Positions 30,327 to 52,879 of a stretch of DNA of 64,000 nucleotides are shown here, piece by piece. Position numbers and translations under genes: made by a program. The stretch is from Eledone cirrhosa (Eukaryota): the NCBI GenBank assembly GCA_964016885.1, contig OZ024743.1:207700001-207764000 (forward strand), in the 5' to 3' direction. Position 1 is the stretch's first letter, and each line of letters opens with the position of its first letter. A model generated the notes under the pieces. That model did not search any database. It worked only from the letters and a program-made list of their open reading frames with translations, and was not told the origin of the DNA.

Positions 30327-31771
30327 ATATATATATGTATATATGTATATATATATATATATATATATATATATATGTATATATGTATATATATATATAT
30401 ATATATATATATATGTATATATATATATATATATATGTATATATGTATATATGTATATATATATATATATATGTATATGTATATATGTATATATATATAT
30501 ATATATATATATGTATATATATATATATATATATGTATATATATGTATATATGTATATATATATATGTATATATATATATATATTTATATATATGTATAT
30601 GTATATATATATATATATATGTATATATATATATGTATATATATATGTATATATGTATATGTATATGTATATATATATATGTATATATATATGTATATAT
30701 GTATATATATATGTATATATGTATATATATATGTATATATATATATATATATGTATATATATATATATATATATGTATATATATATATATATATATGTAT
30801 ATATATATATATGTATATATGTATATATATATATATATGTATATATATATATGTATATATATATATATATATGTATATAATATATATATATATATGTATA
30901 TATATATATATATGTATATATATATATATATGTATATATATATGTATATGTATATATATATGTATATATATATATATATGTATATATATATGTATATATA
31001 TATGTATATATATGTATATATATATATGTATATATGTATATATATATGTATGTATATATATATGTATATATGTATATATATATGTATATATATATATATA
31101 TATATATATGTATATATATATATATATATATATATATATACGTATATATGTATATATATATGTATATATATACATATGTATATATATATGTATATATATA
31201 CATATGTATATATGTATATATATATGTATATATATACATATGTATATATGTATATATATATGTATATATACATATGTATATATGTATATATATATGTATA
31301 TATATACATATGTATATATGTATGTATATATGTATATATATATGTATATATATACATGTGTATATATGTATATATATGTGTATATATGTATATATATATG
31401 TATATATATACATATGTATATATGTATATATATATGTATATATATACATATGTATATATGTATATATATATGTATATATGTATATATATATGTATATATA
31501 TACATATGTATATATGTATATATATATGTATATATACATATGTATATATGTATATATATATGTATATATATACATATGTATATATGTATGTATATATGTA
31601 TATATATATGTATATATATACATGTGTATATATGTATATATATGTGTATATATGTATATATATATGTATATATATATATGTGTATACGTGTATATATGTA
31701 TATGTATATATGTATATGTATATATATGTATATGTATATATATATGTATATTTATTAAAATAACAGATTAA

Positions 31772-31822
31772 AGTTTAAGCAAAGAATCGCTGCTTTCACC
31801 CTTAACGGGATCTTCTGAAACT
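31772..31822 (-). ncRNA. Hammerhead-like fold in the 3' pseudo-LTR (U4A variant)
   Basis: Mirror image of 35055-35105. Confidence 0.55.
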
Positions 31823-32734
31823 AACAAAGTCAATCTGTAAACGCAGAACTGGATATTTCAAAAAACGTTGCAACCGGAGGAAGACAGGAAGACGATACTT
31901 TGGTTCGTGGAAACGTTCGCTGGCAAAGAATGGGAAAAAACAAATAATACGTCATTAATAGGAGCGGCGAAAAACAATTACGCGCAAAGACAGAACCACG
32001 TTTATGGTATAAAAGAGGTTGTAGACTAATGTTCTCTTAGGTGGTGCATAGAGACGTTCTCTGGCAATGAACGAAAAAACGAAGATAATAAGTCATATGT
32101 GGAGCGTGGAGAACAATAGCACGCAAAGACAAAACCACGTAAATGGTATTGCAGAAGTTGTAGACTAAAATTCTAACTAGGAGGCCAAATGAATCTCCGC
32201 TACAGAGTTAAGAACAAAGTAAATAAATACAATACAGAAGTAATAGAAACAAATAAATACATACACGCAAACAATTACGTACATACACATACATACGCAA
32301 AACCTTACCATAGGTATACAAAACCACGCACATATAAATATGTGTGTGTGTGTATGCTTGTGTACAAATAAATAAATAATTATATAAACGTATATAAGTA
32401 AATAAATAAGTATATAACAAGCACACACACATACCTACAAATAAATACGTAAGTCAACTAAGACAGGAAGTACACATATACACACACCCACCATACGTAC
32501 GAACCTGCATACTCACGCAGACGCAAAACTCCCGTATACACATAGCCAAACCCTAAATACCAGAATATGTAAAAATTATACGCCATAACAGTCAAATATA
32601 CGTACGAGAAGGTATACATACCTTCACAAAACATACGGGTAATATATACTTACCTATGCAAATAAGTAAAGGAATTAACAAGACATATACTTAGCTCCCA
32701 CATCAAGACGTTATATATCCACGTATAGATCGTG

Positions 32735-34739
32735 CTATCCGTTAGGGTATAACGTGGGGCTGTAATACAGGAAAGTTTTGTGCAATTTATGTTTACAAGC
32801 TGAGATTGCCTCAGATTTTTTGTTTAAGATGTGGTCTGTAGCGTAGAGTATTTCCAGGGCCTCAGCGGCTCAGAGGTCATATGGTCTTTTATTTCCGTAA
32901 TACGATCTAGCCCTAGCTAGGATCTCCCAGTGTAACTTATATTGGGTGTGGTTGTCTTTTAGACTCCAGATATAAGCTGAAAGTGACGTCATATTCCTTC
33001 TTAGAGGGTAACGAAAAGAATGGGTATGCATGTAAAGACGCTGCTTGAAACTATTGGTGGTTAACCCTATGTAGGCCCTATGGGACGTGGGTGTTACAAC
33101 CTTACATTTGTAGACAATGTTACTAGAGAGGCATTTCCCGTATAGGGGGCAATCAGCCCGATTCCTACAATTACAGTTAGTACTAACTACAGGGTTGCAC
33201 GTGTTCCTACGGCTAGGTAGTTTAGTTAAATTTGAAGCTGTGATGTTATGTGCAAGGTTAGGAGTCGTAGAGTAAGAAATTTTAATAGTATTTCTATTAA
33301 AAATTTTACTATATTTATGTGTAGGGGGAAATGCTTTGTAATAAGGGAAAGAAAGATCTTAGCTAATGGTGTGGCCACCTCCATATTATATGGTGGGTTA
33401 AACCAACAAATGCGACGGGATCTATTTCTACTAGGTCGATTTTCGTACTCTGTATATGCTACCTTATCGACAAATCCACTTCGAGCAAGAGCTTCATTGT
33501 AATAAGTGGAATGGTCGTTGAAAATGCGCTCGTTGGTGGAAAGACGAGAAAGCCTCAACGAAACGTTTTTTACCAGGTTCTTGGTTATGCTGGCAGGATG
33601 GTTGGAATGCTTACTTATGTAATTAAGCGTATCATTCGGCTTTCTATACGGGTAATACAACCCATTCAATAAATTGAGGGTAACGTCGAGGTAATTAACG
33701 ACCGAGAGATTGGCCTCAACCTGTATAGAGAGGTTGAAGCCTTTAAAGAAGGCTGCGAGTTCTTTTCTGAACCTGTCGCAAGCACGAGGTCCGCACTTAG
33801 TCATGGTCAAAAGACCATCGTCACGGTACAAACCACTGCCCACGTTGGGGAATTCGTCCTTGATAGAGAAAAGAAGGAAAAGGCCAATAAGATCAGTAAC
33901 CTCCGCAGAGTCACTGGCGCCCATACTCACGTCGAATGGAGTACTATTGGATTTTTTAATCCAAATAGAGTCGTCGAAATTAATCACCGACTTTCGGGCA
34001 TTAAGGATGACATCAACTTCGAAATCCTTAACCACTGTGAGTGTTTTAGCGAAATTGATAGCTCTAAGGAGAAGTGGTAAAGTGATGGAGGAGTAGTAAT
34101 TGTTGATGTCGAATTGGATAAAACGGCAATGTTCCTTGTTACATATGCCGTTGAACCAATCAATCACCGCGAAAGAATTGTTCCACAGTGCAAGAGGGGC
34201 CAAACTTCTAATTTCAGGTATAATTCTATCAAGAATCGTTTTACTAAGTCTACCTAAATCGGACTTCGTAGGGTTAATAAGCCGAATAGAGGGGTTGTTC
34301 GGAAAATTGGATTTGTGATCCTTCAGGGTAGTGGGGAGAGATAGGGTCCAGAGGTTTGGTCCGGTCCAGGATGTTGAGATCAGATGTGATTTTAAACCCA
34401 GCATCGTTGATTTCATTGATGACGCACCGATTATTTTTACGGTAATCCTTAGTTACAGCATTATGTAGTAGTTGATGGTAAGTACTGCGCTCCACTTGAT
34501 ATAGGTTGCCAGTTTTGTCGGAATGGACGTGCACGGCGTTAGAATCCTTAATAGAACGAATTCTATTCTTCAGGTCTTGCTGGAAGGAATTGCTACTATA
34601 CCAAAATTTGATACTCCGAATGAGTTCCAAGACATCATTTTCGAAGGGTAGCAATGCTGGGTTCCACGGAGGGTTATTATAGGTTTTAAATCCAAATTTA
34701 TCCTGTTTGTTGTCTGCTTTTCGCGGATTATCGAAATAA
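32735..34739 (-). pseudogene. PLE RT-GIY-YIG polyprotein, 5'-truncated, about 3 frameshifts
   Basis: CNCRNRADCPLYGKC..IVYKC..YIGLT..FKQR..YDL(TGA)AAE..LNKKSE..CKH, translated by hand from 33180-32735. Confidence 0.88.
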
Positions 34740-35054
34740 TGGTTTTGTCTTTGCGTGCTATTGTTCTCCACGCTCCACATATGACTTATTATCTTCGTTT
34801 TTTCGTTCATTGCCAGAGAACGTCTCTATGCACCACCTAAGAGAACATTAGTCTACGACCTCTTTTATACCATAAACGTGGTTCTGTCTTTGCGCGTAAT
34901 TGTTTTTCACCGCTTCTATTAATGACGTATTATTTGTTTTTTCCCATTCTTTGCCAGCGAACGTTTCCACGAACCAAAGTATCATCTTCCTGTCTTCCTC
35001 CGGTTGCAACGTTTTTTGAAATATCCAGTTCTGCGTTTACAGATTGACTTTGTT

Positions 35055-51148: not shown

Positions 51149-51572
51149 TACCCATCTTCCGGCTTCTCTGGAGAATTGTAAAAGCACATATCGTTATATG
51201 CTTTTTCTATGAAAATTAGTAGTGGGTAGACTAATTTGCATAGAACGTGAGTCATTGTACGCACCGGTTCAGCGGAAACGATAAAAACAAATAACGAAAC
51301 GAAATTAAATTTCGTTTCGCTTCTAACTCATTTTTGTATGACTGACGCTTAAACAATTAAGTTAAAGTGTACATCTACATATGTATACGGAAGTATTAGT
51401 ATGCATATAAATACACACATGTATACATATGTACATGTACTCAGCTTTTCACTAGACACTTTACAGTGAGTGTCAGCTAGTCTGTATGTAACCACACAGG
51501 CGGACCGGGTTTTAGAGTCATACGAGTTTTCAAGGAAACACATTTCCTCTATTCTCCAGAGGGCCAGGCAGG

Positions 51573-51617
51573 AATATTGGACTAGTTTCGATGTTATTAC
51601 ATCTCATCAGCAATATT
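51573..51617 (-). ncRNA. Type I hammerhead ribozyme
   Basis: Identical motif 469 bp from the first. Confidence 0.92.
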
Positions 51618-52061
51618 TACCCATCTTCCGGCTTCTCTGGAGAATTGTAAAAGCACATATCGTTATATGCTTTTTCTATGAAAATTAGTAGTGGGTAGAC
51701 TAATTTGCATAGAACGTGAGTCATACAGACTAGCTGACACTCACTGTAAAGTGTCTAGTGAAAAGCTGAGTACATGTACATATGTATACATGTGTGTATT
51801 TATATGCATACTAATACTTCCGTATACATATGTAGATGTACACTTTAACTTAATTGTTTAAGCGTCAGTCATACAAAAGTGAGTTAGAAGCGAAACGAAA
51901 TTTAATTTCGTTTCGTTATTTGTTTTTATCGTTTCCGCTGAACCGGTGCGTACAATGACTCACGTTCTATGCAAATTAGTCTACCCACTACTAATTTTCA
52001 TAGAAAAAGCATATAACGATATGTGCTTTTACAATTCTCCAGAGAAGCCGGAAGATGGGTA

Positions 52062-52106
52062 AATATTGCTGATGAGATGTAATAACATCGAAACTAGTCC
52101 AATATT
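52062..52106 (+). ncRNA. Type I hammerhead ribozyme
   Basis: Identical motif; predicted cleavage after GUC at 52099. Confidence 0.92.
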
Positions 52107-52879
52107 CCTGTCTGGCCCTCTGGAGAATAGAGGAAATGTGTTTCCTTGAAAACTCGTATGACTCTAAAACCCGGTCCGCCTGTGTGGTTACATACAGACT
52201 AGCTGACACTCACTGTAAAGTGTCTAGTGAAAAGCTGAGTACATGTACATATGTATACATGTGTGTATTTATATGCATACTAATACTTCCGTATACATAT
52301 GTAGATGTACACTTTAACTTAATTGACTCTATATATAGTTATACATATATACATTACACTCTATATATAGTTATACATATATATATTACATCTATATATA
52401 GTTATACATATATACATTATACAGTCTGTGTATAGTTTTGTTTCATGTTATTTCTTCTTCCCAATGTCTTCTGTTTTAGTATTTTTCAGCTGCCATATTT
52501 ACTTCTCTGTTAACAATTTGTCTTACAAGAATATTTGAAAGATGGGGGGAAGGACACTATTGTTTTCTGTAATATATATATTTGTGTGTGTGTGTGTGTG
52601 TGTATATATAAAATATATATATATATGTGTGCTTTTATGTATGTATGTTTTCACTATCTCTTAATTTTGAGTTTACTTTTGACTGGCCACCTTCCCGGTG
52701 GGAAGGTTGTTAAAGAAAAGAAATTGTCATCACATCTTGTGTAAGCATTCATCTTTTGAATCTTAAGAATATTTTACATACTATAAGGTGTCAGATATCA
52801 CAACCATTATAGTTTATGACTTAAGGAGCTACATTCTTTCTCCACAATTTCAAGCTCATTTATACTTATGTCCAGGTGG

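Follow-up and report, generated by a model that had tools for sequence, protein, structure and literature searches.

A Penelope enzyme likely copies a hammerhead retrozyme whose back-to-back insertions end at two fixed points

The window, a 64,000-nucleotide stretch of the Eledone cirrhosa genome (contig OZ024743.1, positions 207,700,001 to 207,764,000), carries a dead Hydra-type Penelope-like element (PLE), termed PLE-A, two foldbacks, F1 and F2, and a hammerhead retrozyme, termed RZ-A. All four sit in TA or TA-rich repeats, as an earlier reading made from the letters alone (the sequence-only reading) had described. TA tracts overwhelmed repeat finding, and microsatellite-miRNA matches did the same to a whole-window Rfam search. 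PLE-A has an inverted pseudo-LTR (pLTR) plus a tail, with 3' ends pointing outward, and comprises the following features:

31748..34739, minus strand: long arm of the Hydra-type PLE; its short 3' site (31748-31752) abuts (TA)n
32738..34738, minus strand: coding region for the reverse transcriptase (RT) and C-terminal GIY-YIG, in three frames
34740..35129, plus strand: short arm, an inverted pLTR copy 99% identical to the 3' pLTR
35130..35214, plus strand: tail of ~85 nt between the short and long 3' sites, ending at 35212-35214
35055..35105, plus strand, with a mirror copy at 31772-31822, minus strand: hammerhead-like motif of the pLTR

The long arm is 5'-truncated, lacking the first ~41 codons, and bears two frameshifts. 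The inverted repeat (31752-32137 against 35125-34740) spans 386 bp at 99.0% identity, or 390 bp including a common ATAT, and these coordinates bear out the sequence-only reading, which had placed the 3' pLTR on the left in minus sense and an inverted ~390-bp copy with a ~85-nt tail on the right. Read by eye, the central junction appears blunt. In tandem copies the tail continues into the 5' UTR and the ORF. The family inserts into (TA)n, and its two-armed insertions comprise 28 with one short and one long end, one with two short ends (L112), none with two long ends and 12 with an off-site end.

The three frames correspond to residues 42-178, 179-513 and 510-709 of a natural 709-residue copy (L092; 93-98% identity), which consists of a single ORF with YRDD at 346 and YIG at 598. 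Further motifs are RWR at 37, CNCRNRADC at 564, CDLC at 662 and CKH at 690; DKT in the window copy is replaced by NKT in L092, and RWK is found in family PLE-B. Pfam returned zero matches for the PLE-A protein and a match to GIY-YIG for its homologue P0101. A Naiad identity was rejected because the endonuclease is C-terminal. PLE-A shares with the Hydra clade (Craig 2021, section 11) the C-terminal GIY-YIG, the CxCX5C linker, the CxxC and CxH motifs, which lie beside the catalytic E and N, RW[K/R], DKT and (TA)n targets. Its unit is ~3.2 kb, compared with <3 kb in that clade, and the clade call is made from motifs. The pLTR hammerhead-like motif has its stems, although the core reads CAGAAGA in 66 of the 69 copies read, where the Hydra clade has a canonical core; Rfam gave no match to the motif, and self-cleavage activity is doubtful.

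The label F2 in the sequence-only reading was ambiguous, so both foldbacks of the window were examined:

38636..38936, no strand assigned: foldback F1, one arm pair with a ~54-nt tail on the right
47453..47603, no strand assigned: foldback F2, a two-armed copy of a truncated 3' end that has hammerhead stem III at its centre, with a 62-nt tail on the right

Longer genomic copies of the foldbacks carry hammerheads that fix their sense as outward, the polarity claimed for them before. Elsewhere (L266) the F1 3' end follows an uninterrupted RT/GIY-YIG frame of at least 1123 residues; in L253 and L254, F2 is collinear with a Hydra-type ORF. A DNA transposon or MITE identity was discarded: arm length is variable, the tail is one-sided and longer copies continue into PLE sequence. 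Judged from these copies, each foldback is a two-armed insertion, 5'-truncated, of a PLE family of its own; the proposal that they were parasites mobilised in trans, as members of a helper/parasite system, is corrected accordingly.

RZ-A is a 469-nt, non-coding hammerhead retrozyme unit present in the window as two arms with outward 3' ends:

50803..50811, plus strand: left copy of the target-site duplication, ACTCTATAT, 9 bp, or up to 12 with a common ATA
50812..51724, minus strand: left arm of 1.95 units, whose 3' end falls on the long site (unit position 208)
51089..51159, minus strand: type I hammerhead
51558..51624, minus strand: type I hammerhead
51722..51724, no strand assigned: central junction, a 3-nt CAT microhomology in which the arms overlap
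51722..52325, plus strand: right arm of 1.29 units, whose 3' end falls on the short site (unit position 135)
51856..51929, plus strand: the "tail" between the fixed 3' sites, ~70 nt, containing a 13-bp hairpin
52051..52121, plus strand: type I hammerhead, predicted to cut after GUC at unit position 378
52326..52334, plus strand: right copy of the target-site duplication

The outward hammerhead sense on both sides and the CAT junction thus stand as first described. The 3' ends of the window copy lie 73 nt apart, a distance that constitutes its own tail. Each 469-nt period holds one HH9-like motif, and arrays reach 14.7 units. The HH9 matches (31.8 bits, E 1.1e-5) fall under the gathering score of 52; by inspection and folding, the core and stems I-III are intact. 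The unit folds strongly (z -11). No frame of at least 100 residues was found in the arms, except one of 119 residues extending into the flank, and terminal direct repeats beyond the unit, like LTRs, are absent.

The insertion footprint was followed through 77 RZ-A loci, of which 37 were retrieved with the monomer as query and 40 were new, selected by their short end only from 244 short-end junctions genome-wide. At least 56 of the 77 are inverted, and all 56 have their 3' ends outward, so that polarity among copies is not random. The monomer-query set contributes 25 inverted loci (25/25 outward); 23 of these have one short end (unit positions 133-140) and one long end (204-208), and two are atypical. 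The 12 non-inverted loci of the same set all terminate at one of the two sites, a count in which L042 and L060, with the same flanks, probably represent one duplicated insertion counted double. The short-end set comprises 31 inverted loci (31/31 outward), and its 28 visible opposite ends are long in 25 cases, atypical in three and never short. Pooled, the two-ended insertions use one site per arm in 48 of 53 cases and the same site in none (atypical 5/53). The two 3' sites are thus fixed positions ~70 nt apart, each joined directly to TA. Retrozyme families RZ-B and RZ-D and a Neptune-like family resemble RZ-A in this pattern, with the exception of one RZ-B pair with two short ends (L163). RZ-A 5' ends coincide with the ribozyme cut site in 0 of 130 cases (expected 1.9). 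Target duplications measure 9-14 bp and are clearly legible in two RZ-A loci only.

Outward 3' ends are in themselves not PLE-specific, because any two-strand target priming yields them. In L1 twin priming both target strands prime on one RNA, giving outward 3' ends and central microhomology, while the arms share no overlap, the position of the second site varies and the end carries poly(A). The PLE-specific mark is instead that the 3' ends are fixed at a pair of sites, each arm using one, and the two-site pair of RZ-A is the equivalent of the PLE "tail". The earlier proposal that both target strands primed cDNAs, later joined centrally, accounts for the anatomy. The junctions are enriched in microhomology, with at least 2 nt in 21 of the 39 that are clean, where 17% would be expected (P 2e-7). 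The proposal's use of the inversion alone as a PLE fingerprint did not survive. RZ-A also fits neither of the other insertion types anticipated: its ends are not of DNA-transposon type, and a LINE/SINE-type insertion was rejected on the two internal 3' sites joined straight to TA without a poly(A) or simple-repeat tail.

A related possibility is that an abundant TA-targeting RTE LINE moves RZ-A and that the inversions arise by LINE-type twin priming. RTE elements are plentiful in the same TA tracts, with long open frames among them, and one retrozyme 5' end adjoins an RTE 3' UTR (L066). However, in a 1.11 Mb control outward 3' junctions amounted to 35/85 for PLE-A, 1/74 for SINEs and 0/62 for RTE (the PLE_B and F1 rows of this control, with references too long or too short, are unreliable, and a palindromic query skews the F2 row). 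RTE copies terminate in (GAT)n, which is absent from retrozyme ends, and the two arms of a retrozyme insertion have sequence in common and begin at two internal sites; RTE mobilisation is thus very improbable. TA-rich palindromes are prone both to long-read fold-back or assembly artefacts and to later DNA rearrangement, either of which might create inversions. Such an origin is scarcely credible given flanks unlike each other, the presence of target duplications, asymmetric ends at fixed sites and the restriction of the pattern to PLE-type families.

That a Penelope enzyme likely copies RZ-A therefore follows from back-to-back copies that end at two fixed points, as in Penelope. The inversion could still result from self-priming, or fold-back, of a single cDNA (the Arkhipova 2013 model). 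Exact or near palindromes do occur at some junctions (RZ-A L055 and L288; RZ-D L213, L216 and L222), others contain short templated insertions, the two arms carry one haplotype, and PLE junction palindromes have been interpreted in this way (PMC3846280). Nevertheless, most RZ-A central junctions connect unrelated unit positions, each arm terminates at a fixed site of its own that abuts TA, and the longer or the tail-bearing arm can be either one. Moreover, where the element is a single unit, as in F2, a tailed arm cannot have been templated by the end of an arm without a tail. Self-priming is accordingly considered quite unlikely.

Our preferred reading, to which we assign a probability of about 0.8, is that RZ-A enters TA repeats as two outward arms through a PLE RT/GIY-YIG protein that nicks both target strands and primes on one RNA from both. 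Such a protein would nick the strands with a stagger of ~9-14 bp, releasing two 3'-OH ends, each of which would anneal to one of the two RZ-A RNA sites by 1-4 nt of A/U. Both cDNAs would then halt at random positions and be joined end to end; one-armed copies would be those in which the second priming failed, and the foldbacks would stem from this reaction acting on the RNAs of PLEs, with two short cDNAs. A PLE protein nicks and extends both strands in vitro, and two internal RNA start sites delimit the PLE tail (Frangieh 2024).

The identity of the template was approached through haplotypes. Arms of the same insertion match at 115 of 124 diagnostic sites, compared with 22% between loci, a control confounded with age. 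Thirteen locus-private variants are present in all units of both arms, while 110 are confined to one unit. One haplotype across arms and units points to one RNA molecule, which may be circular, as the template that the two DNA strands primed, and animal retrozyme RNAs are predominantly circular in the literature. We lean slightly towards a circular RZ-A monomer, read repeatedly round, as the template. The competing account keeps two-strand priming and differs in the template step only, invoking a long uncleaved tandem transcript, or homogenisation after insertion, with no circle. It draws on the reported dispensability of hammerhead cleavage for a PLE in vitro, on higher-order variant patterns typical of local array turnover in L053, on a private variant found in four of five units in L037, and on a sample of 77 insertions, in which "private" variants could mark source arrays. 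Against it stand the 13 variants fixed across all units and arms, the chiefly circular animal RNAs and L040, whose arms of 4.6 and 4.9 units contain zero variants; we regard it as a real but lesser prospect. In its fullest form, the preferred reading would have the PLE enzyme read one circular RNA twice simultaneously, each nicked strand having its own start site 70 nt apart and the cDNAs rolling before they join centrally, a scheme we hold at slightly under even odds. If true, tail plus inverted pLTR would be the general product of strictly asymmetric two-strand priming, and retrozymes, lacking pLTR homology, would hijack priming by nothing more than the structure of their two-site region.

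The two-site footprint supports the earlier suggestion of a PLE helper, which, on that reading, might already have belonged to a PLE family other than PLE-A. As noted previously, PLE and retrozyme share no sequence: beyond a microsatellite hairpin, RZ-A showed no homology, to a pLTR or otherwise, among nine PLE stretches tested. The youngest RZ-A burst consists of copies 0.23% from the window unit, whereas the sampled PLE-A copies are older (ORF pairs with a median identity of 97.8% and a maximum of 99.1%). No sampled PLE family is as young as these retrozyme copies, in a sampling that was not directed at youth. The Neptune-like N1b first appeared very young, an impression undone by longer alignments (median 96.8%), and its sole full-length copy is broken; a genome search with Hammerhead_1 named no helper. 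Three apparent PLE-retrozyme chimeras were considered as co-integrations and rejected. The PLE part of L048 is older than the retrozyme because it is 87-92% identical and holds a SINE; L057 is nested, its left end being RZ-D and its left PLE-B arm 1070/1076 identical to a neighbour; and in L155 a complete PLE-A mini-foldback lies beside RZ-B, probably joined by a later deletion. PLE-A is thus one candidate helper, and an unlikely one, since homology is lacking, sampled copies are older and the chimeras are explicable by nesting.

RZ-A bears both on the mover of animal retrozymes and on the origin of inverted, tailed PLE insertions, being a non-coding template that is short and very young, with two mapped starts and hundreds of insertions. 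Its evidence for a PLE helper is at the level of insertions; it speaks for two-strand priming rather than self-priming and offers a minimal substrate for tests of reverse transcription from circular RNA. Repeats moved by PLEs but without recognisable homology could be annotated with the help of the one-site-per-arm rule. The helper idea itself is already published: PLEs were proposed as the likely helper of animal non-LTR retrozymes (Cervera and de la Pena 2020; PMC7229834), and a preprint (Li, Clavereau and Pollet 2026; 10.64898/2026.07.22.740005) describes animal retrozymes as non-autonomous PLE derivatives using PLE enzymes, on the evidence of co-occurrence in a set of 35 genomes and, in Xenopus, of pLTR homology. 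A retrozyme insertion footprint of two fixed 3' sites, one per arm, was not found in the literature. The word "inverted" does not occur in PMC7229834, and fixed 3' ends are not given in its passages compared here; the main text of the preprint is without insertion anatomy, which RZ-A supplies, while RZ-A lacks the pLTR homology.

RZ-A resembles the retrozymes of PMC7229834, as far as compared, in that its tandem units are non-coding and contain a single type I hammerhead, and also in its AT-richness and strong folding, its dispersed copies and target duplications of more than 4 bp; its 469 nt slightly exceed their 150-450 bp range. Published PLEs (PMC3846280, PMC8557442 and PMC11167929) share with the elements described here an inverted 5'-truncated copy, a one-sided tail, partial tandem arrangement, AT-rich targets with duplications of 8-10 bp and two internal RT starts, although their tails measure 30-40 nt against 46-160 nt in the families analysed. 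In contrast with the PLE strands studied in vitro, between which no difference in start site was seen (Frangieh 2024), the footprint counted here, on non-coding retrozymes, is strictly one site per arm.

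The window, G000:C4:207700001-207764000, forms part of a 3.0-Gb animal assembly.

Window PLE and retrozyme, by masked self-comparison
31752-32137 / 35125-34740, inverted repeat of the Penelope-like element (PLE), 386 bp, 99.0%
50812-51724, minus strand, left arm of the retrozyme RZ-A
51722-52325, plus strand, right arm of RZ-A

The window PLE displays an inverted copy with an extra tail on one side, as the sequence-only reading had described; ~85 nt extend beyond the 99.0% repeat on the right-hand side only. This copy is dead, since its 5' end is truncated and it contains two frameshifts. 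Candidate copies of its family, PLE-A, number in the thousands, and 16 of 20 loci chosen for long frames carry an uninterrupted frame of at least 707 aa reaching the normal C-terminus. The family targets (TA)n, and its motifs (C-terminal GIY-YIG, CxCX5C, CxxC, CxH, RW[R/K] and DKT) agree with the definition of the Hydra clade given in PMC8557442, section 11. PLE-A copies terminate at either of two sites ~87 nt apart, termed short and long, and the tail between them is the pseudo-LTR (pLTR) running on into the 5' region of the next unit. The 41 two-armed insertions comprise 28 short+long, one short+short, no long+long and 12 with an off-site end. The PLE-A hammerhead core (window 35055-35105 and copies) departs from CUGANGA: 66 of 69 copies have CAGAAGA. 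This may be an inactive or an atypical ribozyme. Several other PLE families, PLE-B (L175), N1 (L105) and N2 (L172), appear to have cores that start with UUGA rather than CUGA, which inspection by eye suggests to be a compensated 3-8 pair.

The window retrozyme contains three outward HH9-like hammerheads (Rfam; 31.8 bits, E 1.1e-5, under the family cut-off) and its arms share a CAT overlap at the centre. The earlier description was accurate. In a first sample, collected with a monomer query (window plus 36 loci; 37 scored out of 512 candidates), 25 of 37 RZ-A insertions were inverted, with one end at unit positions 133-140 and the other at 204-208 in 23 of the 25, the atypical two being L051 and L063. 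The 12 one-armed loci likewise stop at one or other of these sites. Exact short-end/TA junctions number 244 genome-wide, and a second sample of 40 new loci on two contigs (C1 and C2) was drawn from 100 listed junctions, one clustered locus being omitted, with the short end as sole selection criterion. Inverted pairs were present at 31 of the 40, three extending past the fetched stretch; at the other 28 the opposite end was long in 25, atypical in three and short in none. The nine chains counted as not inverted include L296, with a diverged minus arm, and L290, with a long-end stub of 9 nt, and 31 is thus a minimum. Polarity across genomic copies, which had been proposed as a check, is non-random: 25/25 and 31/31 inverted loci have the 3' ends of both arms facing outward (3'-out). 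Either arm may be the longer, and either may carry the tail. At G000:C2:64860893-64864970, a stretch of 4 kb, seven short-end junctions share one orientation, and some of them are only ~30 bp apart.

Central junctions, another proposed check, displayed microhomology above expectation, with at least 2 nt at 21 of 39 clean RZ-A junctions (excluding those with inserted bases) versus 17% expected (P 2e-7). None of 130 hand-transcribed 5' ends fell at the ribozyme cut (1.9 expected). Target duplications were legible at two loci, the window (9-12 bp) and L044 (11-14 bp). Priming of both target strands would yield outward 3' ends with a target duplication on either side, and two fixed sites, one per arm, tie retrozyme insertion to the PLE reaction. 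Because the sites are used one per arm, the data suggest that one complex assigns its own site to each strand. PMC11167929 showed for a purified PLE protein that the two target strands are both nicked and extended, and that synthesis begins at two positions inside the RNA, which bound the tail. Inversion by self-priming would account for palindromic junctions but leaves two independent fixed ends without explanation, and we consider it improbable.

Within RZ-A insertions the two arms are concordant in 115 of the 124 comparisons made at subfamily-diagnostic sites, across 28 informative loci; agreement between loci is 1174/5380, a comparison confounded with age. At positions covered by both arms, locus-private variants occur in every unit (13), some units (10) or a single unit (110). 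This pattern fits a single RNA haplotype read repeatedly per insertion, the outcome expected if a circular monomer were copied in rolling-circle fashion, a route proposed in PMC7229834. A uniform tandem transcript, or conversion after insertion, might instead explain the pattern, an option we hold possible though less likely.

The footprint recurs in other families. RZ-B, 70% like RZ-A and with a unit of ~430 nt, ends at two points that are 64 nt from each other and correspond in position to those of RZ-A; 21 loci, read by eye, hold 12 inverted pairs, all 3'-out (eight short+long, one short+short at L163, three atypical). This second retrozyme family (L066:4571-6010; L150-L169) is older than RZ-A, has 1713 candidates and includes one array of >8 kb (L156). 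RZ-D (unit 541 nt, ends ~88 nt apart) is inverted at 18 of 24 loci, seven of the 24 having been selected for both orientations being listed, with one end of each kind at 16 and two atypical. This third family (L219; L209-L227; L258-L264) resembles PLE-A in tail length (88 nt) and in the bases past the long site. Two-site behaviour like that of the retrozymes is also seen in a Neptune-like PLE whose tail measures 46 nt. A further hammerhead repeat with stem III GAAACGCGUA (13 motifs; L039, L046, L097) is probably another retrozyme.

As a control, directly joined 3'-out pairs were counted in 170 fetched sequences totalling 1.11 Mb: PLE-A gave 35/85 (inward 0), a TA-targeting RTE LINE 0/62 (inward 2) and a SINE 1/74. 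TA targeting is therefore insufficient for the pattern.

RTE-type LINE copies in the window
14938-15702
18772-19777
26157-28823
29948-30324
36975-38253
39304-39898

These LINEs terminate in (GAT)n on the 3' side and have a PHD finger past the RT, all lie within TA tracts, and some contain a 112-bp tandem duplication within the 3' UTR. Other window repeats include a LINE (21746-24992) with endonuclease- and RT-like frames split by a TA tract that has a repeated coding stretch (10 aa) on either side, a decayed element (41740-43620), hAT-transposase-like in two frames by eye and without Pfam match, and a 48-bp satellite (62400-64000; 33 copies, 95% matches) continuing past the window edge.

Foldbacks in the window
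38636-38936, F1, one-sided tail
47453-47603, F2, one-sided tail

The foldbacks, labelled F1 and F2 in this analysis, share the one-sided-tail layout; they are probably not parasites of a helper. L069 and L090 each contain a GIY-YIG frame, and the F1 arm and tail match the 3' end downstream of it at 89-91%. In L090 the frame runs uninterrupted over at least 1123 aa and gives weak RVT_1 and GIY-YIG matches under Pfam cut-offs. In the parent of F1 (L266:1-3370), a PLE frame stays open for at least 1123 aa, and its N-terminal part includes a stretch rich in asparagine. Copies of F2 differ in arm length, end at two fixed sites and carry a complete type I hammerhead upstream. The link of F2 to a PLE is weaker, collinearity with one Hydra-type ORF in two loci running via a long, insertion-riddled 3' region. 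On this evidence, each foldback most probably represents a short insertion, with two arms, of its own PLE family. The flanks of F2 (47603-47846) and the retrozyme (52326-52519) share a ~32-bp minisatellite followed by common unique sequence, 87% alike, reflecting local duplication or a shared repeat. An inverted 92-bp pair (44692-44969; 95%) with a TA/CA microsatellite centre is unlike the other foldbacks.

As previously noted for the window PLE, no homology to the retrozyme is visible; a microsatellite hairpin is the sole sequence RZ-A shares with the nine PLE stretches compared. Three apparent PLE-retrozyme chimeras were rejected on inspection. Over 65,892 bases, the youngest RZ-A copies differ from the window unit at 150, a divergence of 0.23%; PLE-A, PLE-B and N1b copies are ~97-99% alike in a sample not aimed at the youngest PLEs. 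The short site of N1b reads TTCTATTCCGTTTAC and is similar to the long site found in RZ-B variants, with up to 14 nt shared; it bears no such resemblance to the RZ-A long site. N1b (L345; L066:6219-6400), a Neptune-like PLE with a 4.66-kb unit and a 46-nt tail, is on this sequence likeness a possible helper lead.

In the literature searched, mostly outside subscription papers, no description of inverted two-site retrozyme insertions was found, although supplements of a 2026 preprint (10.64898/2026.07.22.740005) may bear on this; its available text backs a PLE helper by co-occurrence and pLTR homology. The parts consulted of PMC3846280, cited beside PMC11722881, already give inverted copies and tails as PLE features, and those of PMC7229834 name PLEs as the likely retrozyme helper. 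The retrozymes and PLEs described here are of kinds already known and the helper idea is already published; the two-site footprint is real and genome-wide, and the new evidence is this insertion footprint together with the one-site-per-arm rule.
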